From NCBI RefSeq assembly GCF_041886205.1, contig NZ_CP169029.1: a stretch of 64,000 bases of DNA; one strand, written 5' to 3'. Below the pieces are notes generated by a model. The model saw only the letters and a program-made list of their open reading frames with translations, was not told the DNA's origin and did no database searches. The position numbers and the translations under genes are program-made. Shown here piece by piece: positions 21,786 through 54,935 of the stretch. Origin of the DNA: Escherichia coli. GTDB taxonomy: Bacteria > Pseudomonadota > Gammaproteobacteria > Enterobacterales > Enterobacteriaceae. Position 1 is the first letter of the stretch. Each line of letters starts with the position of its first letter.

Positions 21786-22499
21786 ATGGAAAAAGTCATG
21801 TTGTCCTTTGACAAAGTCAGCGCCCACTACGGCAAAATCCAGGCGCTGCATGAGGTGAGCCTGCATATCAATCAGGGCGAGATTGTTACCCTGATTGGCG
21901 CGAACGGGGCGGGGAAAACCACCTTGCTCGGCACATTATGCGGCGATCCGCGCGCCACCAGCGGGCGAATTGTGTTTGATGATAAAGACATTACCGACTG
22001 GCAGACGGCGAAAATCATGCGCGAAGCGGTAGCGATTGTCCCGGAAGGGCGTCGTGTTTTCTCGCGGATGACGGTGGAAGAGAACCTGGCGATGGGCGGT
22101 TTCTTTGCCGAACGTGACCAGTTTCAGGAGCGCATAAAGTGGGTGTATGAGCTGTTTCCACGTCTTCATGAGCGTCGTGTTCAGCGGGCGGGCACCATGT
22201 CCGGCGGTGAACAGCAGATGCTGGCGATTGGTCGCGCGCTGATGAGCAACCCGCGTTTGTTGTTGCTTGATGAGCCATCGCTCGGTCTTGCGCCGATTAT
22301 CATCCAGCAAATTTTCGACACCATCGAGCAGCTGCGCGAGCAGGGGATGACTATCTTCCTCGTCGAGCAGAACGCCAACCAGGCGCTAAAGCTGGCGGAT
22401 CGCGGCTACGTGCTGGAAAACGGCCATGTGGTGCTCTCCGATACCGGCGACGCGCTGCTGGCGAACGAAACGGTGAGAAGTGCGTATTTAGGCGGGTGA
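21786..22499 (+). CDS. livF: Branched-chain amino acid ABC transporter ATPase LivF
   Basis: ORF 21774..22499; start MEKVMLSFDK at 21786 gives the remembered 237 aa protein; Walker A GANGAGKTT. Confidence 0.92.
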   Translation: MEKVMLSFDKVSAHYGKIQALHEVSLHINQGEIVTLIGANGAGKTTLLGTLCGDPRATSGRIVFDDKDITDWQTAKIMREAVAIVPEGRRVFSRMTVEENLAMGGFFAERDQFQERIKWVYELFPRLHERRVQRAGTMSGGEQQMLAIGRALMSNPRLLLLDEPSLGLAPIIIQQIFDTIEQLREQGMTIFLVEQNANQALKLADRGYVLENGHVVLSDTGDALLANETVRSAYLGG

Positions 22500-22508
22500 T
22501 TTATCAAT

Positions 22509-22541
22509 AACCCGGCAGCTAAGTTCTGCCGGGTTATTTGT
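22509..22541 (+). terminator. liv operon rho-independent terminator
   Basis: Stem aacccggcag/ctgccgggtt with loop ctaagtt followed by atttgt. Confidence 0.75.
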
Positions 22542-22599
22542 CCGTATACAGACTTGTTTCAACTGACCGGGAGGATTAAAAACTGTCCACTTATTTGCC

Positions 22600-35466: not shown

Positions 35467-36807
35467 GTGACTACATTAACGCTTGTTTTAACAGCAGTAG
35501 GGTCTGTTTTACTGCTGCTGTTTTTAGTCATGAAGGCGCGTATGCACGCTTTCCTGGCTTTAATGGTGGTGTCTATGGGGGCTGGCCTTTTTTCCGGTAT
35601 GCCGCTCGATAAAATCGCAGCGACGATGGAAAAAGGGATGGGAGGCACCCTCGGCTTCCTGGCGGTGGTTGTCGCCCTGGGAGCTATGTTTGGCAAGATC
35701 TTACATGAAACCGGCGCAGTCGATCAGATTGCCGTCAAAATGCTCAAATCCTTCGGCCACAGCCGCGCGCATTATGCCATTGGCCTTGCGGGGCTGGTTT
35801 GTGCGCTACCGCTGTTCTTTGAAGTGGCGATTGTTCTGCTGATTAGCGTTGCTTTCTCAATGGCGCGCCACACCGGTACGAACCTGGTGAAGCTGGTAAT
35901 CCCATTATTCGCAGGCGTGGCGGCAGCGGCGGCGTTCCTGGTGCCAGGGCCAGCGCCAATGCTGCTGGCATCGCAGATGAACGCCGATTTTGGCTGGATG
36001 ATCCTGATTGGCCTGTGTGCGGCAATTCCGGGAATGATTATTGCCGGGCCGCTGTGGGGTAACTTCATCAGCCGTTACGTTGAGCTGCATATTCCTGACG
36101 ACATCAGCGAACCGCATCTCGGCGAAGGCAAAATGCCATCTTTCGGATTCAGCCTGTCGCTGATCCTGCTGCCGCTGGTGCTGGTAGGGCTGAAAACCAT
36201 TGCCGCGCGTTTTGTGCCGGAAGGATCAACTGCTTACGAATGGTTTGAGTTTATCGGTCATCCGTTTACCGCGATTCTGGTTGCTTGTCTGGTGGCGATT
36301 TACGGTCTGGCAATGCGTCAGGGCATGCCAAAAGACAAAGTGATGGAGATTTGCGGTCACGCGCTGCAACCGGCGGGGATCATTCTGCTGGTGATTGGTG
36401 CGGGCGGCGTGTTCAAACAGGTGCTGGTTGACTCTGGCGTAGGTCCGGCACTGGGCGAAGCGTTAACCGGCATGGGCCTGCCGATTGCTATCACCTGCTT
36501 CGTGCTGGCCGCTGCAGTGCGCATCATTCAGGGGTCTGCCACCGTAGCCTGTTTAACGGCGGTGGGACTGGTGATGCCAGTCATTGAACAACTGAACTAC
36601 TCTGGTGCGCAAATGGCGGCACTGTCGATTTGTATCGCTGGTGGTTCGATTGTTGTCAGCCACGTTAACGACGCTGGTTTCTGGTTGTTCGGTAAATTTA
36701 CCGGCGCGACCGAAGCCGAAACGCTGAAAACCTGGACCATGATGGAAACCATCCTCGGCACTGTCGGTGCCATCGTTGGGATGATTGCGTTCCAGCTGTT
36801 GAGTTAA
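35467..36807 (+). CDS. gntU: Low-affinity gluconate transporter GntU (GntP family)
   Basis: 446 aa polytopic ORF matching remembered GntU. Confidence 0.93.
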   Translation: MTTLTLVLTAVGSVLLLLFLVMKARMHAFLALMVVSMGAGLFSGMPLDKIAATMEKGMGGTLGFLAVVVALGAMFGKILHETGAVDQIAVKMLKSFGHSRAHYAIGLAGLVCALPLFFEVAIVLLISVAFSMARHTGTNLVKLVIPLFAGVAAAAAFLVPGPAPMLLASQMNADFGWMILIGLCAAIPGMIIAGPLWGNFISRYVELHIPDDISEPHLGEGKMPSFGFSLSLILLPLVLVGLKTIAARFVPEGSTAYEWFEFIGHPFTAILVACLVAIYGLAMRQGMPKDKVMEICGHALQPAGIILLVIGAGGVFKQVLVDSGVGPALGEALTGMGLPIAITCFVLAAAVRIIQGSATVACLTAVGLVMPVIEQLNYSGAQMAALSICIAGGSIVVSHVNDAGFWLFGKFTGATEAETLKTWTMMETILGTVGAIVGMIAFQLLS

Positions 36808-36820
36808 TTACTGCGACAAA

Positions 36821-36852
36821 TTACTGCGAGCTTGCTCGCAGTAATTCATTTC
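36821..36852 (+). terminator. gntU rho-independent terminator
   Basis: Stem ttactgcgag/ctcgcagtaa with loop cttg followed by a T-rich run. Confidence 0.7.
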
Positions 36853-36946
36853 TCTTATCTCCTCTCTTCATCTTTTTGATCCCTCTCGCAAATTTACCTG
36901 CTAATAATCCGTTCTAATCACTGCCTAAAGATCGCAGGAGATAAAG

Positions 36947-39043
36947 ATGGAAAAGCACGGAGCTGAATTGCTTTTACAGCGGATGTTAGGAAATACCACC
37001 GCTACTTTCAGGAAAGGGCAATGGGAAGCCATAGACGCGGTGGTGAACCAACGGCGAAAACTGCTGGTTGTCCAACGCACTGGCAGGGGGAAAAGTGCCG
37101 TGTACTTCATCGCCAGTAAAATCTTCCGCGATCGCGGTGCTGGCCCGACAATTATCATCTCTCCTTTGCTTGCCCTGATGCGTAACCAGGTTGCCGCCGC
37201 TGAACGGTTAGGTATTACGGCTGAAACGTTGAATTCTACAAACAGGGAAGAATGGCAGCGTATTAGCGATAAGTTGCTGCAAGGTGAGGTCGATTGCTTG
37301 CTGGTTTCCCCGGAACGTTTGGCAAACCAGGACTTTATCGAAACGGTTTTATATCCTATAGCCGATCGTATTGGCTTGCTTGTGGTCGACGAGGCGCACT
37401 GCATCTCTGATTGGGGCCACGATTTTCGCCCGGATTACCGACGTATATTAGATATTTTGCGCCAACTGCCTGCGAATATCCCAGTTCTGGGTACAACCGC
37501 GACAGCGAATAACCGTGTCGTTGAGGATATCCGTCAGCAATTGGGTGACATTGTGATTCAGCGTGGAACGCTGGCTCGCGAAAGTTTGGCGCTTGATGCC
37601 TTAGTCTTAGGTGAACAGTCATCCCGTCTGGCATGGTTAGCAACGGTTATCCCTCAGTTTTCCAAATCGGGAATTGTTTATACCCTGACTACTCGCGATG
37701 CCGAACTTGTCGCCGAGTGGTTAAGGACAAATGGTATCAGTGCATTTGCTTACTACAGCGGCGTGACTTGTGAAGGCGCGGAAGATTCTAATACTGCCAG
37801 GGAATATCTGGAGCAGGCGCTGCTGGCAAATAAAATCAAAGTGCTGGTCGCGACGACGGCATTAGGTATGGGGTTTGATAAACCTGATTTAGGTTTCGTC
37901 ATTCATTATCAAATGCCGGGGTCTATTGTCGGTTACTACCAACAGGTAGGGCGTGCCGGGCGTGCTATAGATTCCGCTGTTGGCATATTGCTTTGTGGTG
38001 GTGAAGACCGCGCTATTCATAAATTCTTCCGTGAAAGCGCCTTTCCTGCGGAGGCGCAAATTCATGAAATACTCAACGTACTTAGCGAGAATGACGGTCT
38101 TACCCTACGAGGCATTGAACAACGGACGAATCTCCGTTATGGGCAAATAGAAAAAGCACTGAAATTATTGGTAGCTGAAAATCCATCGCCTGTGGTGTAT
38201 ACCGAGAAATTATGGCGCAGAACTATCGTCAGTTTCTCTCCTGACCATGAACGAATTAACCATTTGATGAATCAGAGAAAAAATGAGCTGGCAGATGTTG
38301 AAAGCTATATCACGACCAAGGAGTGCAAAATGCAATTTCTGCGCCGCGCACTCGATGAGCCAAGTGCCGAACGTTGTGGTAAATGTAGCAGTTGTCTTCA
38401 GCATCCGTTGCTGTCGCCCGATATTGATAGCGGCTTACTCCATGCGGCAAATTTATTTATTAAACACGCTGACCTGCCATTAAATCTCAATAAACAGGTA
38501 GCATCTGGGGCTTTTACGCAATACGGATTTAAAGGGAACTTGCCTGCGGGTTTACAAGGATCTACGGGGCGAGTCCTTTCTCGTTGGGGAGATTCCGGGT
38601 GGGGAAAGCAGGTAGCACAGGAGAAAAAAACGGGGCGATTCAGTGATGAGCTGGTGGAGGCATGTGCGGAAATGGTTCGCCAACGCTGGAATCCGCATCC
38701 TGAACCAACCTGGGTATGCTGCGTTCCTTCATTAAGGCACCTCGACCTGGTTCCTGATTTTGCCCGGCGACTGGCGGCGAAACTTGGCTTACCTTTTATT
38801 GATGCCATTGAAAAAGTCGTGGACAATCCACCGCAGAATATGCAGCAAAACCGTTTTCACCAGTGTCAAAATCTCGACGGGGCGTTTGTGATTACCCCTC
38901 CTTTGATGCCAGGTCCGGCGTTGCTGGTTGACGATATCGTGGATTCTGCATGGACGCTGACAGTTCTGACAGCACTGTTACGCCAGGCAGGTTGCCCGAC
39001 GGTTTATCCTCTTGCCCTTGCTTCTACCTCGGTAAAAAATTGA
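36947..39043 (+). CDS. RecQ-family DEAH-box helicase with zinc-binding motif and C-terminal phosphoribosyltransferase-like (ComF-like) domain; accessory gene absent from the K-12 gntU-yhgN junction
   Basis: 698 aa ORF with strong SD (aggag, 36936..36940). Motifs: Walker A TGRGKSAVY, RecQ-type motif II VVDEAHCISDWGHDFRPDY, TATA motif, helicase-C QQVGRAGR, Cys cluster C..CGKCSSC, C-terminal PRTase-like LLVDDIVDSAWTL. Confidence 0.88.
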   Translation: MEKHGAELLLQRMLGNTTATFRKGQWEAIDAVVNQRRKLLVVQRTGRGKSAVYFIASKIFRDRGAGPTIIISPLLALMRNQVAAAERLGITAETLNSTNREEWQRISDKLLQGEVDCLLVSPERLANQDFIETVLYPIADRIGLLVVDEAHCISDWGHDFRPDYRRILDILRQLPANIPVLGTTATANNRVVEDIRQQLGDIVIQRGTLARESLALDALVLGEQSSRLAWLATVIPQFSKSGIVYTLTTRDAELVAEWLRTNGISAFAYYSGVTCEGAEDSNTAREYLEQALLANKIKVLVATTALGMGFDKPDLGFVIHYQMPGSIVGYYQQVGRAGRAIDSAVGILLCGGEDRAIHKFFRESAFPAEAQIHEILNVLSENDGLTLRGIEQRTNLRYGQIEKALKLLVAENPSPVVYTEKLWRRTIVSFSPDHERINHLMNQRKNELADVESYITTKECKMQFLRRALDEPSAERCGKCSSCLQHPLLSPDIDSGLLHAANLFIKHADLPLNLNKQVASGAFTQYGFKGNLPAGLQGSTGRVLSRWGDSGWGKQVAQEKKTGRFSDELVEACAEMVRQRWNPHPEPTWVCCVPSLRHLDLVPDFARRLAAKLGLPFIDAIEKVVDNPPQNMQQNRFHQCQNLDGAFVITPPLMPGPALLVDDIVDSAWTLTVLTALLRQAGCPTVYPLALASTSVKN

Positions 39044-40245
39044 TGAATCTTTCAGCCAATGCACAAGCGACTCTCCTGCTAACCAGCGATTTTTCTCGCG
39101 CGGCGGCGAGTGAGCATAAACCTCTTAGTAATAGTGAATGGGGGAAGTTTGCATTATGGCTGAAGCACCAACGTATCAGTCCCGCCGAGCTTCTGGTGCC
39201 GCAACCGCAAGAGAAACTTACAGGCTGGAGCGATCCGCGTATTTCTCAGGAGCGTATTCTTGGCTTGCTGGCGCGCGGTCATAGTCTGGCGTTGGCGGTA
39301 GATAAGTGGCAACGCGCCGGTTTATGGATCATAACCCGAGGAGATGCTGATTATCCCGTTCGCTTGAAAAACCGATTGCGAACGGATGCACCTCCCGTTT
39401 TATTTGGCTGCGGGAATAAAGCATTACTGCAAGCGGAAGGTATGGCGATTGTTGGCTCGCGAGATGCTCCGACTGACGATTTGCGCTATACCCAACAACT
39501 GGCCGCGAAACTGGCCCAACAGGGGATTTGCGTTATCTCTGGTGGTGCGCGAGGTATTGATGAATGTGCAATGGCGTCGGCACTGGAGGCCGGGGGAACT
39601 GCCGTTGGCGTATTAGCTGATAGCTTGTTAAAAACGAGTACGTTAGTGAAATGGCGTGAAGGGCTTATAGCAGGCAACCTGGTGTTGATTTCGCCGTTTT
39701 ACCCAGAGGTGCGTTTCACCGTCGGCAATGCGATGGCGCGAAATAAATATATTTATTGCCTTGCTGAAAGCGCAATGGTTGTACGTGCGGGAATGACCGG
39801 TGGAACGATAACCGGGGCGATAGAGGCATTAAAACATCAGTGGCTGCCTGTGCAGGTTAAACCAAATCAGGATATGCAATCAGCCAATTCACGATTAGTA
39901 GAAAATGGGGCGTCATGGAGTGCTGAACAGGCTGAGAATGTGCCGATCAGACTGTCAGACGTTCCTGGGCTGATGTATGACAGAGCACTCCGTAACGCTC
40001 AACCAGAACTGTTTTCGCTGTATGAAGATGACGCAAATTACGCAGTAATGCCCGCGCATACGCCTGTCGATTTTTATCAACTCTTTGTGGCGGAACTGGC
40101 GATCTTTGCAAAGGAATCGATAAGTATTGAAAGGCTGTCGTCTTGTACTGGTTTAACCATCGAACAAATTAGTGTGTGGCTGAACCGCGCAGAAGAAGAG
40201 GGAAGGGTTATCCGATTGGGCGAAGGTCATTATCAGTTCAGGTAA
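39043..40245 (+). CDS. DprA/Smf-like protein (Rossmann/SLOG-fold core with N-terminal extension and C-terminal winged-helix-like tail); accessory
   Basis: ORF track frame 38950..40245; start taken at MNLSANAQ (39043), whose ATG overlaps the upstream TGA stop (TGATG). Core motifs IVGSRDAP, VISGGARGIDECAMASALEAGG and LISPFYPEVRFTVGNAMARN resemble DprA. Confidence 0.85.
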   Translation: MNLSANAQATLLLTSDFSRAAASEHKPLSNSEWGKFALWLKHQRISPAELLVPQPQEKLTGWSDPRISQERILGLLARGHSLALAVDKWQRAGLWIITRGDADYPVRLKNRLRTDAPPVLFGCGNKALLQAEGMAIVGSRDAPTDDLRYTQQLAAKLAQQGICVISGGARGIDECAMASALEAGGTAVGVLADSLLKTSTLVKWREGLIAGNLVLISPFYPEVRFTVGNAMARNKYIYCLAESAMVVRAGMTGGTITGAIEALKHQWLPVQVKPNQDMQSANSRLVENGASWSAEQAENVPIRLSDVPGLMYDRALRNAQPELFSLYEDDANYAVMPAHTPVDFYQLFVAELAIFAKESISIERLSSCTGLTIEQISVWLNRAEEEGRVIRLGEGHYQFR

Positions 40246-40248
40246 TAA

Positions 40249-40284
40249 AACAGGTGCCGCGTCTGGTTGTGTGCAGCACCTGTT
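40249..40284. terminator. Hairpin between the DprA-like gene and convergent yhgN
   Basis: Perfect 9 bp inverted repeat aacaggtgc/gcacctgtt around an 18 nt loop, immediately after the stop at 40245. Confidence 0.5.
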
Positions 40285-40290
40285 TGAACC

Positions 40291-40884
40291 TTACCCCTTC
40301 ATCCACATTCGAATGCCGTCGAGGAACATCTGGGTTGCCATCATCACCAGAATCAATCCCATCAGGCGTTCAAGTGCGTTCACCCCTTTCTCGCCCAGCA
40401 GACGTAAAAATAGCGAAGACTGTAGCAGGATGACAAAGGTGCCGCCCCAGGCCAGCAGCAGAGCAATCACCAGATGTCCCATCTGATTTGGGTACTGATG
40501 AGACAACAACATCAGCGTGGCGAGAATAGTCGGCCCGGCGACTAACGGAATTGCCAACGGCACGATAAATGGCTCTTCACCTGCCGGAAGCCCGCTGCTA
40601 TTTCCTGAAGCGCTGGGGAAAATCATCTTAATGGCGATCAGAAACAGTATGATGCCGCCAGAAATGGAGACGGTTTCTGCTCGCAGGCTAAGAAATGCCA
40701 GAATTTTCTCACCCGCAAACAGGAACACCAGCATCACCAGGAGAGCAATAAGCAACTCTCGCACCATGATTGCCCGCCGTCTTTTCGGTTCAGTATGTTT
40801 CAGTACGGACATGAAAATAGGTAGGTTTCCGAGCGGATCCATAATCAGGATCAATAAAACTGCTGCAGAAATGATTTCATTCAT
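40291..40884 (-). CDS. yhgN: MarC family inner membrane protein YhgN
   Basis: 197 aa polytopic ORF matching remembered YhgN. Confidence 0.9.
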   Translation of the reverse strand: MNEIISAAVLLILIMDPLGNLPIFMSVLKHTEPKRRRAIMVRELLIALLVMLVFLFAGEKILAFLSLRAETVSISGGIILFLIAIKMIFPSASGNSSGLPAGEEPFIVPLAIPLVAGPTILATLMLLSHQYPNQMGHLVIALLLAWGGTFVILLQSSLFLRLLGEKGVNALERLMGLILVMMATQMFLDGIRMWMKG

Positions 40885-42451: not shown

Positions 42452-44638
42452 ATGTCCGATCGTATCGATAGAGACGTGATTAACGCGCTAATTGCAGGCC
42501 ATTTTGCGGATCCTTTTTCCGTACTGGGAATGCATAAAACCACCGCGGGACTGGAAGTCCGTGCCCTTTTACCCGACGCTACCGATGTGTGGGCGATTGA
42601 ACCGAAAACCGGGCGCAAACTCGCAAAACTGGAGTGTCTCGACTCACGGGGATTCTTTAGCGGCGTCATTCCGCGACGTAAGAATTTTTTCCGCTATCAG
42701 TTGGCTGTAGTCTGGCATGGTCAGCAAAACCTGATTGATGATCCTTACCGTTTTGGTCCGCTAATCCAGGAAATGGATGCCTGGCTATTATCTGAAGGTA
42801 CTCACCTGCGCCCGTATGAAACCTTAGGTGCGCATGCAGATACTATGGATGGCGTCACAGGTACGCGTTTTTCTGTCTGGGCTCCAAACGCCCGTCGGGT
42901 CTCGGTGGTTGGGCAATTCAACTACTGGGACGGTCGCCGTCATCCGATGCGCCTGCGTAAAGAGAGCGGCATCTGGGAACTGTTTATCCCTGGGGCGCAT
43001 AACGGTCAGCTCTATAAATACGAGATGATTGATGCCAATGGCAACTTGCGTCTGAAGTCCGACCCTTATGCCTTCGAAGCGCAAATGCGCCCGGAAACCG
43101 CGTCTCTTATTTGCGGGCTGCCGGAAAAGGTTGTACAGACTGAAGAGCGCAAAAAAGCAAATCAGTTTGATGCGCCAATCTCTATTTATGAAGTTCACCT
43201 GGGCTCCTGGCGTCGCCACACCGACAACAATTTCTGGTTGAGCTACCGCGAGCTGGCCGATCAACTGGTGCCTTATGCTAAATGGATGGGCTTTACCCAC
43301 CTCGAACTACTGCCCATTAACGAGCATCCCTTCGATGGCAGTTGGGGTTATCAGCCAACTGGCCTGTATGCACCAACCCGCCGTTTTGGTACTCGCGACG
43401 ACTTCCGTTATTTCATTGATGCTGCACACGCAGCTGGTCTGAATGTGATTCTCGACTGGGTGCCAGGCCACTTCCCGACTGATGACTTTGCGCTTGCCGA
43501 ATTTGATGGTACGAACTTGTATGAACACAGCGATCCGCGCGAAGGCTATCATCAGGACTGGAACACGCTGATTTACAACTATGGTCGCCGTGAAGTCAGT
43601 AACTTCCTCGTCGGTAACGCGCTTTACTGGATTGAACGTTTTGGTATTGATGCGCTGCGCGTCGATGCGGTGGCGTCAATGATTTATCGCGACTACAGCC
43701 GTAAAGAGGGGGAGTGGATCCCGAACGAATTTGGCGGGCGCGAGAATCTTGAAGCGATTGAATTCTTGCGTAATACCAACCGTATTCTTGGTGAGCAGGT
43801 TTCCGGTGCGGTGACAATGGCTGAGGAGTCTACCGATTTCCCTGGCGTTTCTCGTCCGCAGGATATGGGCGGTCTGGGCTTCTGGTACAAGTGGAACCTC
43901 GGCTGGATGCATGACACCCTGGACTACATGAAGCTCGACCCGATTTATCGTCAGTATCATCACGATAAACTGACCTTCGGGATGCTCTACAACTACACTG
44001 AAAACTTCGTCCTGCCGTTGTCGCATGATGAAGTGGTCCACGGTAAAAAATCGATTCTCGACCGGATGCCGGGCGACGCATGGCAGAAATTCGCTAACCT
44101 GCGCGCTTACTATGGCTGGATGTGGGCATTTCCGGGCAAGAAACTGCTGTTCATGGGGAACGAATTTGCCCAGGGCCGCGAGTGGAACCATGACGCCAGC
44201 CTCGACTGGCATCTGTTGGAAGGCGGCGATAACTGGCACCACGGTGTCCAGCGTCTGGTGCGCGATCTGAACCTCACCTACCGTCACCATAAAGCGATGC
44301 ATGAACTGGATTTTGACCCGTACGGCTTTGAATGGCTGGTGGTGGATGACAAAGAACGCTCGGTGCTGATCTTTGTGCGTCGCGATAAAGAGGGTAACGA
44401 AATCATCGTTGCCAGTAACTTTACACCGGTGCCGCGTCATGATTATCGCTTCGGCATTAATCAGCCAGGCAAATGGCGTGAAATTCTCAATACCGATTCC
44501 ATGCACTATCACGGCAGTAATGCAGGCAATGGCGGCACGGTACACAGCGATGAGATTGCCAGCCACGGTCGTCAGCATTCACTAAGCCTGACGCTACCAC
44601 CGCTGGCCACTATCTGGCTGGTTCGGGAGGCAGAATGA
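42452..44638 (+). CDS. glgB: 1,4-alpha-glucan branching enzyme GlgB
   Basis: 728 aa ORF matching remembered GlgB (GH13). Confidence 0.96.
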
Positions 44639-46608
44639 CACAACTCGCCATTGGCAAGCCCGCTCCCCTCGGCGCGCATTACGACGGTCAGGGCGTCAAC
44701 TTCACACTTTTCTCCGCTCATGCCGAGCGGGTAGAGCTGTGTGTCTTTGACGCCAATGGCCAGGAGCATCGCTATGACTTGCCAGGGCACAGTGGCGACA
44801 TTTGGCACGGTTATCTGCCGGATGCGCGCCCGGGTTTGCGTTATGGTTATCGCGTTCATGGCCCCTGGCAACCCGCCGAGGGGCATCGCTTTAACCCGGC
44901 GAAGTTGTTGATTGATCCTTGCGCGCGGCAAATTGACGGGGAGTTTAAAGATAACCCGCTGCTGCACGCCGGTCATAATGAACCTGACTATCGCGACAAC
45001 GCCGCCATTGCGCCGAAATGCGTAGTGGTGGTTGATCACTATGACTGGGAAGATGATGCCCCGCCGCGCACGCCGTGGGGCAGCACCATCATTTATGAAG
45101 CCCATGTCAAAGGATTAACGTACCTGCACCCGGAGATCCCGGTCGAGATCCGTGGCACTTATAAAGCCCTCGGGCATCCGGTGATGATCAACTATTTGAA
45201 ACAGTTGGGCATTACCGCGCTGGAACTGCTGCCGGTGGCGCAGTTTGCCAGTGAACCACGTCTGCAACGCATGGGACTAAGTAACTACTGGGGTTACAAC
45301 CCGGTGGCGATGTTTGCGCTGCATCCGGCGTATGCCTGCTCGCCAGAAACGGCGCTGCATGAGTTTCGCGATGCAATCAAAGCACTGCATAAAGCGGGTA
45401 TCGAAGTCATTCTTGATATCGTGCTCAACCATAGTGCGGAACTGGACCTCGACGGCCCGTTATTCTCGCTGCGTGGGATCGACAACCGTAGCTATTATTG
45501 GATAAGAGAAGACGGCGATTATCACAACTGGACCGGTTGTGGCAACACGCTCAATTTGAGTCATCCGGCGGTGGTGGATTATGCCAGCGCCTGCCTGCGT
45601 TATTGGGTAGAAGCCTGCCACGTCGATGGTTTCCGCTTTGATCTGGCGGCAGTCATGGGCCGTACGCCAGAGTTCCGTCAGGATGCGCCGTTGTTTACCG
45701 CTATCCAGAACTGCCCGGTGCTCTCGCAGGTGAAGTTAATTGCTGAACCGTGGGATATCGCTCCTGGTGGTTATCAGGTGGGAAATTTCCCGCCGCTGTT
45801 TGCCGAGTGGAACGATCATTTCCGCGATGCTGCCCGTCGTTTCTGGCTACATTATGATTTGCCTCTGGGGGCGTTTGCCGGGCGTTTTGCTGCCTCCAGC
45901 GATGTTTTTAAACGTAATGGTCGTCTGCCGAGTGCCGCGATTAATCTCGTCACTGCGCATGACGGTTTTACGCTTCGCGACTGCGTTTGCTTCAACCATA
46001 AACATAATGAAGCAAACGGAGAAGAAAATCGCGACGGGACCAACAACAATTACAGTAACAATCATGGTAAAGAAGGGTTAGGCGGTTCTCTTGACCTGGT
46101 TGAACGGCGGCGCGACAGCATTCACGCCCTGTTAACAACGTTGTTGCTCTCCCAGGGTACGCCGATGTTACTGGCCGGTGACGAACATGGTCACAGCCAG
46201 CATGGCAATAACAATGCCTACTGTCAGGATAACCAATTAACCTGGTTGGACTGGTCGCAGGCAAGCAGTGGTTTAACCGCATTTACCGCCGCGTTAATCC
46301 ATCTGCGCAAGCGCATTCCCGCTTTGGTGGAGAATCGCTGGTGGGAAGAAGGCGACGGCAATGTCCGTTGGCTAAATCGATATGCTCAACCTTTAAGCAC
46401 GGATGAGTGGCAAAACGGGCCGAAACAGCTGCAAATTCTGCTCTCGGATCGCTTTTTGATCGCAATTAACGCCACGCTTGAGGTAACAGAGATTGTTTTA
46501 CCTGCTGGGGAGTGGCACGCCATTCCCCCATTCGCTGGAGAGGATAACCCAGTGATTACGGCTGTCTGGCAGGGACCTGCACACGGATTGTGTGTGTTCC
46601 AGAGATGA
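44635..46608 (+). CDS. glgX: Glycogen debranching enzyme GlgX
   Basis: 657 aa ORF overlapping the glgB stop; GH13 isoamylase-type. Confidence 0.95.
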
Positions 46609-46625
46609 TAAAAAAGGAGTTAGTC
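46579..46625 (+). promoter_or_regulatory. glgC leader CsrA binding region (GGA hairpin plus SD)
   Basis: Hairpin gcacacGGAttgtgtgtg with GGA in the loop (46579..46596) and SD aaGGAg (46613..46618) just upstream of the glgC ATG; matches the remembered CsrA target. Confidence 0.7.
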
Positions 46626-47921
46626 ATGGTTAGTTTAGAGAAGAACGATCACTTAATGTTGGCGCGCCAGCTGCCATTGAAATCTGTTGCCCTGATACTG
46701 GCGGGAGGACGTGGTACCCGCCTGAAGGATTTAACCAATAAGCGAGCAAAACCGGCCGTACACTTCGGCGGTAAGTTCCGCATTATCGACTTTGCGCTGT
46801 CTAACTGCATCAACTCCGGGATCCGTCGTATGGGCGTGATCACCCAATACCAGTCCCACACTCTGGTGCAGCACATTCAGCGCGGCTGGTCATTCTTCAA
46901 TGAAGAAATGAACGAGTTTGTCGATCTGCTGCCAGCGCAGCAGAGAATGAAAGGGGAAAACTGGTATCGCGGCACCGCAGATGCGGTCACCCAAAACCTC
47001 GACATTATCCGCCGTTATAAAGCGGAATACGTGGTGATCCTGGCGGGCGACCATATCTACAAGCAAGACTACTCGCGTATGCTTATCGATCACGTCGAAA
47101 AAGGCGCACGTTGCACTGTTGCTTGTATGCCAGTACCGATTGAAGAAGCCTCCGCATTTGGCGTTATGGCGGTTGATGAGAACGATAAAATTATCGAATT
47201 CGTTGAAAAACCAGCTAACCCGCCGTCAATGCCGAACGATCCGAGCAAATCTCTGGCGAGTATGGGTATCTACGTCTTTGACGCCGACTATCTGTATGAA
47301 CTGCTGGAAGAAGACGATCGCGATGAGAACTCCAGCCACGACTTTGGCAAAGATTTGATTCCCAAGATCACCGAAGCCGGTCTGGCCTATGCGCACCCGT
47401 TCCCGCTCTCTTGCGTACAATCCGACCCGGACGCTGAGCCGTACTGGCGCGATGTGGGTACGCTGGAAGCTTACTGGAAAGCGAACCTCGATCTGGCCTC
47501 TGTGGTGCCGGAACTGGATATGTACGATCGCAATTGGCCAATTCGCACCTACAATGAATCATTACCGCCAGCGAAATTCGTGCAGGATCGCTCCGGTAGC
47601 CACGGGATGACCCTTAACTCACTGGTTTCCGGCGGTTGTGTGATCTCCGGTTCGGTGGTGGTGCAGTCCGTTCTGTTCTCGCGCGTTCGCGTGAATTCAT
47701 TCTGCAACATTGATTCCGCCGTATTGTTACCGGAAGTATGGGTAGGTCGCTCGTGCCGTCTGCGCCGCTGCGTCATCGATCGTGCTTGTGTTATCCCGGA
47801 AGGCATGGTGATTGGTGAAAACGCAGAGGAAGATGCACGTCGTTTCTATCGTTCAGAAGAAGGCATCGTGCTGGTAACGCGCGAAATGCTACGGAAGTTA
47901 GGGCATAAACAGGAGCGATAA
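46626..47921 (+). CDS. glgC: Glucose-1-phosphate adenylyltransferase GlgC
   Basis: ORF 46590..47921; start [17 protein letters not shown] (46626) gives the remembered 431 aa protein. Confidence 0.95.
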
Positions 47922-51936: not shown

Positions 51937-53454
51937 ATGGAAAGAATAATGCAAAACAGAAAATGGATTTTGACCTCGCTGGTAATGACTTTTTTCGGCA
52001 TCCCCATACTGACGCAATTTTTGGCAGCGGTTGTTGCTATGCTGGGGGGCGGGCTTGCCGCTATTCTTGAGGTTTGCAATTTACTCTTTACGCCAGCAAT
52101 TTATCTTCTACTCAACGTCTTTATGCTGACTCTGGGGGCGATAATAATATTTTTCTCTGGTCGCGTGTGGGCGGGCGATAGTGCACCAGAAAAAAAAGAA
52201 ATAGCCGTCTGGCGACAATGTCTTTTTTTAGTACCTGCTTTATTCACCCTGGTTGGCTGGATAATCACGCTACATCTGGCAGATTATCAATTTCGCCAGA
52301 TGGGAGACGGTTGGTTGGCAAACCTTATGCTTCCCTGGTTGGGCATTTTTTTAGTCTCATTAGTGGGTGGTGAGTACTGGTGGATAGTCATTATACCCGT
52401 TGGCGCGCATATCAGTTTTTCGCTGGGGTACGGTTGGCCGACCAGACATCTTTTAACGGGCACGTCCGGGTTACGTTGCCGTAATTCCCTCTTGTTTATC
52501 CTTCTCATGCTTGGTTTTGTCGCCGGTTACCAGGCTTATTTATATAAACAGCTTAATCCCGGCGTCGGTGTCCGCGAAAATATTGATACCTGGGCCTGGC
52601 GACCCGATAAACTCAATAATCAACTGACACCATTACGTGGTAAACCGCAAATTCAGTTTACGCAAAACTGGCCGCGACTCGATGGTGCTACGGCGGCGTA
52701 CCCAATTTATGCCTCTGCCTTTTATGCGTTGAGCGTTATACCGGAAGATTTTCACACCAGGGAATATCTGGAGAACTCTCATACCCCCGATGCATATAAC
52801 AGGATTGTTAAAGGTGATGCCGATATTATTTTTGTGGCGCAACCCTCCGGTAGGCAGAAAAAACGCGCTGAGGAATCGGGCGTCACTTTGCTATACACGC
52901 CATTTGCCCGTGAAGCATTCGTTTTCATCGTCAATGCGGATAATCCGGTTAATTCCCTGACTGAACAACAGGTGCGTGACATCTTCAGTGGTGCAATTAC
53001 CAACTGGCGTACTGTTGGCGGTAACGATCAGGAGATCCAGACCTGGCAACGCCCGGAAGACTCTGGCAGCCAGACGGTGATGCAATCACAGGTCATGAAA
53101 AATGTCCGCATGATCTCGCCGCAGGAAACAGAAGTGGCAAGTATGATGGAGGGAATGATTAAAGTCGTTGCCGAATACCATAATACAAAGAACTCAATTG
53201 GCTACACCTTCCGCTATTACGCCACGCAAATGAACGCTGACAAGAATATCAAATTGTTAGCGATTAACGGTATTGCACCCACTGCGGAAAATATCCGTAA
53301 CGGCAAATATCCGTATATCGTCGAGGCATTTATGGTAACGCGGGAAAATATGACCTCAGAAACACAAAAATTGGTGGAGTGGTTTTTAACGCCGCAGGGG
53401 CAGAGCCTGGTGGAAGATGTAGGTTATGTGCCGATGTATAAGACGCTACCTTAA
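51937..53454 (+). CDS. Polytopic membrane domain fused to a C-terminal PstS-like (phosphate-binding-protein fold) periplasmic domain; K-12 has only the yzgL pseudogene here
   Basis: 505 aa ORF; N-terminal ~200 aa hydrophobic, C-terminal region with PBP-like motifs (DGATAAYPIY..., SGSQTV). A TATAAT-like element lies ~25 bp upstream. Start may be M1 (51937) or M5 (51949). Confidence 0.75.
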   Translation: MERIMQNRKWILTSLVMTFFGIPILTQFLAAVVAMLGGGLAAILEVCNLLFTPAIYLLLNVFMLTLGAIIIFFSGRVWAGDSAPEKKEIAVWRQCLFLVPALFTLVGWIITLHLADYQFRQMGDGWLANLMLPWLGIFLVSLVGGEYWWIVIIPVGAHISFSLGYGWPTRHLLTGTSGLRCRNSLLFILLMLGFVAGYQAYLYKQLNPGVGVRENIDTWAWRPDKLNNQLTPLRGKPQIQFTQNWPRLDGATAAYPIYASAFYALSVIPEDFHTREYLENSHTPDAYNRIVKGDADIIFVAQPSGRQKKRAEESGVTLLYTPFAREAFVFIVNADNPVNSLTEQQVRDIFSGAITNWRTVGGNDQEIQTWQRPEDSGSQTVMQSQVMKNVRMISPQETEVASMMEGMIKVVAEYHNTKNSIGYTFRYYATQMNADKNIKLLAINGIAPTAENIRNGKYPYIVEAFMVTRENMTSETQKLVEWFLTPQGQSLVEDVGYVPMYKTLP

Positions 53455-53556
53455 GCAGGATAATCATATGGATACCGGTATTATTCACCTGAACGCGGCG
53501 AATGTTCGTTTTGTTTATCAACCATTTACACGCGACCAGCGGAAGAGGGGGTAATT

Positions 53557-54333
53557 ATGCAACCCAGCCCCGCCATGCAGGCATTAATTGAGCAGATTTA
53601 TTATATTTTTCGTCGTTATCCTGTGCCATCGAGATTTCATGTTTGTTGTCCTTACTGTTTTAGCGAAGAACAACAACAAGCCTTAAGAGGGGTTTCACTG
53701 CGTGCCATACCTTTTCCTTTATTACATGCCTGGGGAACAAGTATTGGCCCTAACCCACAAAATGATGATGAGATTCGCTATTTATTACCCAGATTGTTTG
53801 AATTAATTGCCCAAAGGCAATTTCCAGGCATTTATGAAGGCTGCTGTTTACAGAGAATAGCAGAGGCAGATAACCAGAACTGGCGAAGGGATGAACTACA
53901 AATAATTAGCGATTTCGCCTATTTATATATGCAGGATTGGGTGTCGGCTAAGGAAGTCGTGGAACTGGAAATAATATTAGAAATGTTTTATCGCGGTGGT
54001 ATAAAGATTGAACCCTTACTTGACTCTATTATGTCCATTTCCGGTTACTGGCCGACGGCGTCTATGGCATGTTTGCTCTGGCGTAACAGTAAAGAATACG
54101 TCGAAAATAGCGATTTTGAGCAGAGTGATGATAATAAAACTATTACCACCCAAATCAATACTTGGGCTAGAAACAATCATCCTTTGCTGAAAGAAAGAGC
54201 GCGGCAAGCGATTGAGAACCCACTAAAACAGCCCGAACCAATGACAGAATATCAAGTCTGGGAAGACGACTGGATGATTGATGAGTGTTTATGCGCGATG
54301 TATGACGCATCACCTGAACAATCAGGACAATAA
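53557..54333 (+). CDS. Hypothetical cytoplasmic Cys-containing protein, AT-rich gene
   Basis: 258 aa ORF with strong SD (agaggggg) and no TM segments; codon usage visibly AT-rich compared with flanking glg/glp genes; no family recognised by eye. Confidence 0.65.
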   Translation: MQPSPAMQALIEQIYYIFRRYPVPSRFHVCCPYCFSEEQQQALRGVSLRAIPFPLLHAWGTSIGPNPQNDDEIRYLLPRLFELIAQRQFPGIYEGCCLQRIAEADNQNWRRDELQIISDFAYLYMQDWVSAKEVVELEIILEMFYRGGIKIEPLLDSIMSISGYWPTASMACLLWRNSKEYVENSDFEQSDDNKTITTQINTWARNNHPLLKERARQAIENPLKQPEPMTEYQVWEDDWMIDECLCAMYDASPEQSGQ

Positions 54334-54335
54334 AG

Positions 54336-54935
54336 ATGAAGAAAATCAGACTTTATATTTATCCGCTATATCTCGGCTTTGTTATTGTGCCGTTGTTGGT
54401 ATGGCCGACGGTGGTTGCGCTGGTTGTTGTTGGTATCACACTGAGTTTTCTGATGGAGATGCTGTTCTCAAATTCGTTCATGCACAGGCGTATTTCCCTT
54501 CTGGAATTACAACTTGGGTTATTGGCTGAATATACGCTTTTGTTCTGCGCCATATGTTACGTTGGTTGGCAATTTGCTTCCAGAACTCAATCTGAATTGA
54601 AAAGCAGACTGCATTGTTGGTTGGTATTTGCACCAGTTTATTTCTGGTTGTTCCTGTGGGATATCATTTTCTATGTCGCGCCAGCGAAAATTACATTGCT
54701 GGAAAATATGCGCAGTTTCTTTCTGACCGTTGTCTGGCTCCCACTGAATTTTTCGCCATTTTGGCCTCAGCCGTGGACTGACTTTATCGGTCCGATAAGT
54801 GCACAGCTTGGGTTTGCGTTAGGATATTACTGCCATTGGCGCAGCAAAAATAGAAGCCAGAGGCTGAAGTGGGGGGAGTGGGGAACGTGCCTGAGTTTTG
54901 TTACGTTGGGTATGATGGCGTGGGCTTTACGGTAA
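54336..54935 (+). CDS. Hypothetical small polytopic membrane protein
   Basis: 199 aa ORF starting 3 bp after the previous stop; 4-5 predicted hydrophobic helices; AT-rich. Confidence 0.6.
   Translation: MKKIRLYIYPLYLGFVIVPLLVWPTVVALVVVGITLSFLMEMLFSNSFMHRRISLLELQLGLLAEYTLLFCAICYVGWQFASRTQSELKSRLHCWLVFAPVYFWLFLWDIIFYVAPAKITLLENMRSFFLTVVWLPLNFSPFWPQPWTDFIGPISAQLGFALGYYCHWRSKNRSQRLKWGEWGTCLSFVTLGMMAWALR

Follow-up and report, generated by a model that had tools for sequence, protein, structure and literature searches.

A GGA-loop hairpin at the glgX-glgC junction of an Escherichia coli genome, identical in sequence to the characterised CsrA site of the glgC leader

The glgC leader is the founding example of translational repression mediated by CsrA, and the CsrA sites of the E. 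coli K-12 glgC (glgCAP) leader were reportedly mapped by Baker et al. 2002 and Mercante et al. 2009, whose work is relayed by a later review. One CsrA site lies over the Shine-Dalgarno (SD) sequence and another in the unpaired loop of a hairpin located shortly before it (PMC7652899; PMC2896534); a review counts four sites in all on this leader, and gives 10-63 nt as the range that a CsrA dimer can bridge (PMC7652899). A glgC 5′ UTR reporter is among the classical CsrA-repressed targets tabulated in the supplement of PMC6028588, and the footprinted non-SD site, ACGGA, was mutated in the same study (PMC6028588). For Salmonella, CsrA CLIP-seq reads obtained in vivo are described as having "almost perfectly overlapped" the GGA-bearing hairpin in its glgC leader (PMC5207318).

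We compared these published accounts with the glgX-glgC junction in the window, that is, the whole 64,000-nucleotide stretch of E. coli DNA analysed here. The features of the junction are as follows.

44635-46608, + strand: glgX coding sequence (657 aa, glycogen debranching enzyme), from the open reading frame list and the RefSeq annotation of identical loci; its C-terminal 120 aa are identical to PDB 2WSK.
46492-46625, + strand: glgC leader, 134 nt, as used in published in vitro work; its +1 is inferred from the primers and range of PMC2896534, and the region is identical to MG1655.
46571-46575, + strand: AGGGA, an ANGGA-type motif from the motif listing and a candidate additional weak CsrA site; its GG has an unpaired probability of 0.02-0.24, being mostly paired in a predicted outer stem.
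46579-46595, + strand: putative CsrA hairpin (stem 46579-46584 with 46590-46595, loop GGAUU 46585-46589, GGA 46585-46587), from the sequence, folds, identity to the reporter, conservation and wobble covariation.
46583-46587, + strand: ACGGA, the footprinted non-SD core (PMC6028588), inside the hairpin.
46606-46608, + strand: glgX stop codon TGA, from the sequence, the open reading frame list and the RefSeq annotation of the identical locus.
46614-46619, + strand: glgC SD sequence AAGGAG, from the sequence, with the second CsrA GGA at 46616-46618; the literature puts a CsrA site over the SD.
46626-47921, + strand: glgC coding sequence (431 aa, glucose-1-phosphate adenylyltransferase), the regulated gene, from the annotation of identical loci.

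The string gcacacGGAttgtgtgtg occupies exactly 46579-46596 of the window, and the glgX frame across it reads GCA CAC GGA TTG TGT GTG TTC CAG AGA TGA, i.e., A H G L C V F Q R stop. The hairpin, encoded by codons Ala649-Val654, falls among the nine sense codons that precede the glgX stop; the SD sits in the 17-nt spacer between this stop and the glgC ATG (46626-46628), from which it is separated by 6 nt. The two GGAs start at 46585 and 46616, and their separation of 31 nt falls within the 10-63 nt bridging range (PMC7652899). The preliminary description, made from the sequence alone, had noticed a hairpin with GGA in the loop and a second GGA in the SD, both of which we find in the sequence (46579-46595 and 46616-46618), and had ended the element at 46625, which is indeed the last leader base, directly before the glgC ATG; its further statement that the arrangement is embedded in the last glgX codons holds for the hairpin and fails for the SD. 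The RefSeq annotation of an identical E. coli locus has the gene order glgB-glgX-glgC-glgA-glgP and the same glgX/glgC boundaries, and a mechanically called open reading frame at 46590-47921 is glgC merely prolonged 5′ to a GTG. The primers in PMC2896534 and the range given there, "+46 to +179", correspond to 46537 and 46670, placing the start of the in vitro transcript at 46492.

The comparison with characterised sequences was straightforward: window positions 46565-46725 are identical (161/161) to the glgC 5′ UTR reporter (supplement of PMC6028588), which includes the ACGGA site, and positions 46304-46804 are identical (501/501) to E. coli K-12 MG1655 3569150-3569650, reverse strand. There is thus none of the divergence from the characterised site that had been singled out beforehand as evidence against the assignment, and the arrangement earlier called a textbook CsrA target does match the layout in the literature (PMC7652899; PMC2896534; ACGGA in PMC6028588). 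A full-text literature search with the literal hairpin sequence returned no match; the sequence is present in the supplementary table of PMC6028588. Based on the sequence identity and on the published experiments on the identical sequence, we put at about 95% the probability that this element is the CsrA operator already characterised on the E. coli glgC (glgCAP) mRNA.

The identity at this site does not make the window a stretch of K-12 itself, a possibility that we rejected since its syntenic blocks are 96.5-98.7% identical to K-12 and there are several insertions and deletions. The mismatch-free run to K-12 at 46005-46847, which extends from the 3′ end of glgX through the leader into the 5′ end of glgC, is the longest (842 nt) in the 11.9-kb glg block, and is not clearly exceptional; the case for a leader unusually conserved relative to its flanks is weak, there being mismatch-free runs of 768, 646 and 555 nt elsewhere in the same block. 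Within the species the site is close to invariant. Of 5426 complete E. coli genomes, 5425 match the 361-nt stretch around it at 99% identity or more, and the 70-nt core is identical in 5381 of those 5425, the other 44 differing at one to three positions; the 32-mer of the hairpin was found in 5396/5426 complete genomes (~99.5%) and that spanning the stop, SD and ATG in 5411/5426. In E. coli O177:H21 (L122, NZ_CP016546.1), the A tract of the spacer corresponding to window positions 46610-46615 is A5 and not A6, with the hairpin, both GGAs and the SD-ATG spacing the same as in the window.

Folding recovered the hairpin readily. The 18-mer folds as ((((((.....)))))). at -7.1 kcal/mol (z = -2.6; 2/200 shuffles equally stable), and the same hairpin of a 6-bp stem with loop GGAUU was recovered in 63-nt and 141-nt contexts. 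Partition-function folding of the whole leader gave pairing probabilities of 0.72-0.90 for the stem; G46586 and A46587 are unpaired with P = 1.0 and G46585 with P = 0.54-0.62, while the SD GGA is unpaired with P = 0.84-0.92. The predicted structure therefore has one GGA in the loop of a small hairpin 5′ to the ribosome binding site and a second overlapping the SD, as in a glgC-type leader repressed by CsrA. The pattern is not significant by itself, as GGA-in-loop hairpins are no commoner in the window than in shuffled sequence: with stems of at least 5 bp, the + strand of the 64 kb has 59 and the - strand 49, against 68 ± 9 expected for the + strand from mononucleotide shuffles. At this density there is a ~5% chance of such a hairpin lying 10-63 nt upstream of any given SD, i.e., at about one gene in 20 with a GGA-containing SD. 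We therefore regard the element as non-chance because its sequence is identical to that of a characterised site, and not because of its motif. A search of the whole window with Rfam 15 gave no model above the gathering threshold at the glgC leader, the sole match being the RyhB sRNA gene at 31541-31605 (+ strand, 83.1 bits); as short protein-binding mRNA sites are usually not modelled as families, this does not count against a CsrA site.

According to the literature on the identical sequence, a CsrA dimer binds the GGA of the hairpin loop with high affinity, and this tethering lets the second RNA-binding surface of CsrA reach the weaker SD GGA 31 nt downstream. CsrA at the SD then shuts out the 30S ribosomal subunit, such that glgC translation is blocked and the mRNA destabilised, and sequestration of CsrA by the sRNAs CsrB and CsrC relieves the repression. 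In addition, we infer that the hairpin is an overlapping code, in which the conserved GlgX C-terminal AHG[VL]CVF would supply most of the stem, and a rare glycine codon, GGA, together with covarying third bases of Ala649 and Cys653 would make that stem a CsrA site.

How this plays out may depend on the transcript. A single glgBXCAP transcription unit is said to have been reported by Montero et al. (Biochem J 2011), and a glgC promoter, or a glgCAP transcript starting inside glgX, is also described in published accounts; a simple promoter scan found no sigma-70 consensus in 46200-46700, leaving an internal glgC promoter unsupported from sequence. The published accounts thus differ on glgC transcription. 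In the long glgBXCAP mRNA the hairpin would lie within translated glgX sequence, and CsrA binding and glgX translation might then hinder each other.

We also looked at the junction across the Enterobacterales. A degenerate DNA pattern for a GlgC peptide matched at least 120 loci in reference genomes; among the loci listed, 61 had an enterobacterial-type GlgC N-terminus, and 45 of the listed loci had glgX immediately upstream with an end of the form W[HQN]G[PAS]AH..C... Among the matches listed, the GlgX tail W[HQ]GPAHG[VL]CVF is conserved in 45 species, and folding gave a local hairpin of 5-8 bp in 45/45 Enterobacterales homologues. When these listed homologues are set against the E. coli structure, 83.7% of cells pair, five pairs change on both sides, and the covariation score is one that 0/500 shuffles reached; the wobble pair formed by the third bases of Ala649 and Cys653 is G-C in 18, A-U in 6, G-U in 6 and unpaired in 9. 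Pairing persists in 76.7% of cells after the 3′ strand is shifted by 2 columns, alternative registers being possible because the stem is a CA/GU dinucleotide repeat. We found the loop glycine codon to be GGA in 27 of the 38 species with glycine there among the matches listed, as compared to a background of 7.3% of glycine codons in the glgC ORFs of the same species, although these species counts are not phylogenetically independent. The GGA codon occurs in Escherichia, Citrobacter, Enterobacter, Lelliottia, Kluyvera, Pseudocitrobacter, Cedecea, Shimwellia and others; most Pantoea, Erwinia and Mixta have GGC or GGT at this codon, and Yersinia and Serratia have Ala, Thr or Ser. Hairpins that lack the loop GGA were seen in Pantoea, Erwinia and Mixta (L024, L040, L060, L093, L098, L102, L105), Yersinia (L002, L019, L085) and Serratia (L069, L099). 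In these sequences the stem is widespread, and the CsrA motif on it is largely an Enterobacteriaceae feature.

The spacer between glgX and glgC is 9-18 nt in most relatives among the matches listed. Longer spacers, of 22-79 nt and not ~14-17, were found in Kluyvera (L036), in Pseudocitrobacter (L054 and L068) and at two further loci (L029 and L113). In Kluyvera and Pseudocitrobacter, with spacers of 54-79 nt, the hairpin is probably beyond the 63-nt CsrA bridging range from the SD, and the inserted spacers bear extra GGA motifs (four in L036, two in L054).

The conservation of the GlgX tail raises the question of whether the hairpin could be a mere by-product of the peptide, in which Ala-His codons happen to pair with Cys-Val codons and no regulatory role need be assumed. 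The tail is conserved in all 45 species, Erwiniaceae, Yersinia and Serratia retain the hairpin without its GGA, and the 12,288 synonymous recodings of PAHGLCVF still fold, with a mean minimum free energy of -4.2 kcal/mol (-5.1 when weighted by codon usage); an energy of -5 kcal/mol or below is reached by 36-56% of these, and 6-12% equal or surpass the native sequence in stability. The peptide itself thus predisposes to a hairpin, and stem conservation is only partly evidence for selection at the RNA level. However, only ~1.3% of the recodings combine native-level stability with GGA in the loop, the synonymous sites covary, and the frequency of GGA at the loop codon far exceeds the background given above. 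More directly, the published footprinting, the mutagenesis of ACGGA and the repression of the reporter all concern the identical sequence, and the in vivo CLIP reads from Salmonella lie on the hairpin (PMC5207318). We therefore give a by-product without function a very small probability.

Two further readings would give the structure a function other than CsrA binding. It might serve mainly in translational coupling of glgX and glgC, or in mRNA processing or stability, independently of CsrA; for instance, ribosomes ending at the glgX stop could melt the hairpin and reinitiate at the glgC ATG 17 nt on. The short spacers here and in most relatives, the reported co-transcription as glgBXCAP and the persistence of the hairpin in lineages without GGA would all suit such a role, but coupling is compatible with CsrA control, which is directly documented, and several genera tolerate spacers of 54-79 nt, such that we see only a slim chance that the structure is mainly a coupling or processing element. 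A stem-loop near the end of a gene, followed here by GUGUUCC, might also suggest an intrinsic terminator or attenuator; however, a scan of 46200-46700 detected no terminator-like site, a GC-rich stem followed by a U run is absent, the stem being AU/GU-rich and worth only -7.1 kcal/mol, and the downstream genes belong to the same operon, so a terminator can for practical purposes be dismissed. CsrA control, with the hairpin as its upstream site, is the reading that we retain.

Given the distribution of the loop codon, we tentatively raise the idea, which we consider rather unlikely, that the high-affinity tether of glgC is an overlapping code born in one lineage: the Enterobacteriaceae would have fixed GGA and co-adapted wobble bases on a ready-made stem in the GlgX tail, while most Erwiniaceae, Yersinia and Serratia would have kept the stem only. 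If so, CsrA control of glycogen synthesis should be weaker or wired differently in most Erwiniaceae, Yersinia and Serratia; the comparison hints that glgC control by hairpin-tethered CsrA may be specific to the Enterobacteriaceae. Ribosomes translating glgX would also have to unwind the hairpin, and CsrA repression of glgC would then depend on glgX translation or on the promoter used. The CsrA motif falls on a synonymous glgX codon, so that a change of Gly651 from GGA to GGC would part the RNA function from the protein function. A PDB sequence search with the GlgX C-terminus matched only 2WSK, E. coli GlgX itself, and is thus uninformative on distant homologues.

For the strain itself nothing new follows from the element, which is present in nearly every E. 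coli: like almost all members of the species, the strain has the usual cis element through which glycogen synthesis is controlled post-transcriptionally. The preliminary description had called the hairpin preserved, which is true yet uninformative, given that the same sequence occurs in ~99.5% of complete E. coli genomes. Its conclusion that the control is intact in this strain can be upheld for the cis element; the wider statement exceeds the evidence, as the genes acting in trans are outside the window (csrA, csrB, csrC, csrD and barA/uvrY are absent from the syntenic K-12 stretch, 3.552-3.616 Mb, in the K-12 gene listing).

Other parts of the window differ from K-12. Between gntU and yhgN, ~3.5 kb absent from K-12 (36807-40291) contains two ORFs on the + strand, 36947-39043 and 38950-40245, encoding a 698-aa RecQ-like DEAD/DEAH helicase and a 431-aa DprA/SLOG protein; these gave full-length PADLOC matches to PsyrT (1057 bits) and PsyrA (660 bits), and so make up a PsyrTA-type anti-phage toxin-antitoxin system. 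Between glgP and glpD, at the yzgL locus, the window has ~2.7 kb more than K-12 (51937-54935); encoded there are a 505-aa protein with a PBP_like_2 domain, of which K-12 yzgL seems to be a remnant, and, in two further ORFs, products of 258 and 199 aa that had no Pfam or PADLOC match. At ~30841-30902 there is no counterpart of a ~3.4-kb K-12 segment with yhhZ, yrhA and IS1E, and between ugpB and livF (~22497-23413) the window has ~0.9 kb as against ~0.2 kb in K-12.

Among described systems, the E. coli K-12 glgC leader has the same sequence, with the hairpin-loop GGA (ACGGA), the SD GGA and the 31-nt spacing; the element is no different, and only the host strain is not K-12. The Salmonella glgC leader likewise has a GGA hairpin that is bound by CsrA in vivo, and a Salmonella glgC-gfp fusion is derepressed on CsrB overexpression (PMC5207318), although this is an orthologue from another genus. 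In Citrobacter and Enterobacter orthologues the bases of the stem differ from those in the window (GCGCAC...GUGUGC) and the loop is GGAGU or GGACU. The leader of the ColE7 lysis gene cel has the same two-site layout, a GGA in the loop of hairpin T1 and another in the SD, and the same proposed mechanism of tethering at the hairpin and blocking of the SD (PMC2896534), whereas its sequence is unrelated, it is plasmid-borne and it is not inside an upstream coding region. CsrA ligands obtained by SELEX have invariant ACA and GGA with a downstream GU, and most have at most 4 contiguous base pairs and a 6-nt loop, as opposed to the 6-bp stem and 5-nt loop of the glgC hairpin; GCACACGGAUUG agrees with the SELEX consensus RUACARGGAUGU at 8/12 positions, with ACA and GGA present and the bases between them and the downstream GU shifted. 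The CsrB/CsrC repeats and the SELEX consensus share with the glgC element a GGA in a short hairpin loop and an A two bases upstream (A-N-GGA), but the repeats are decoys, whereas the glgC element would be an mRNA operator.
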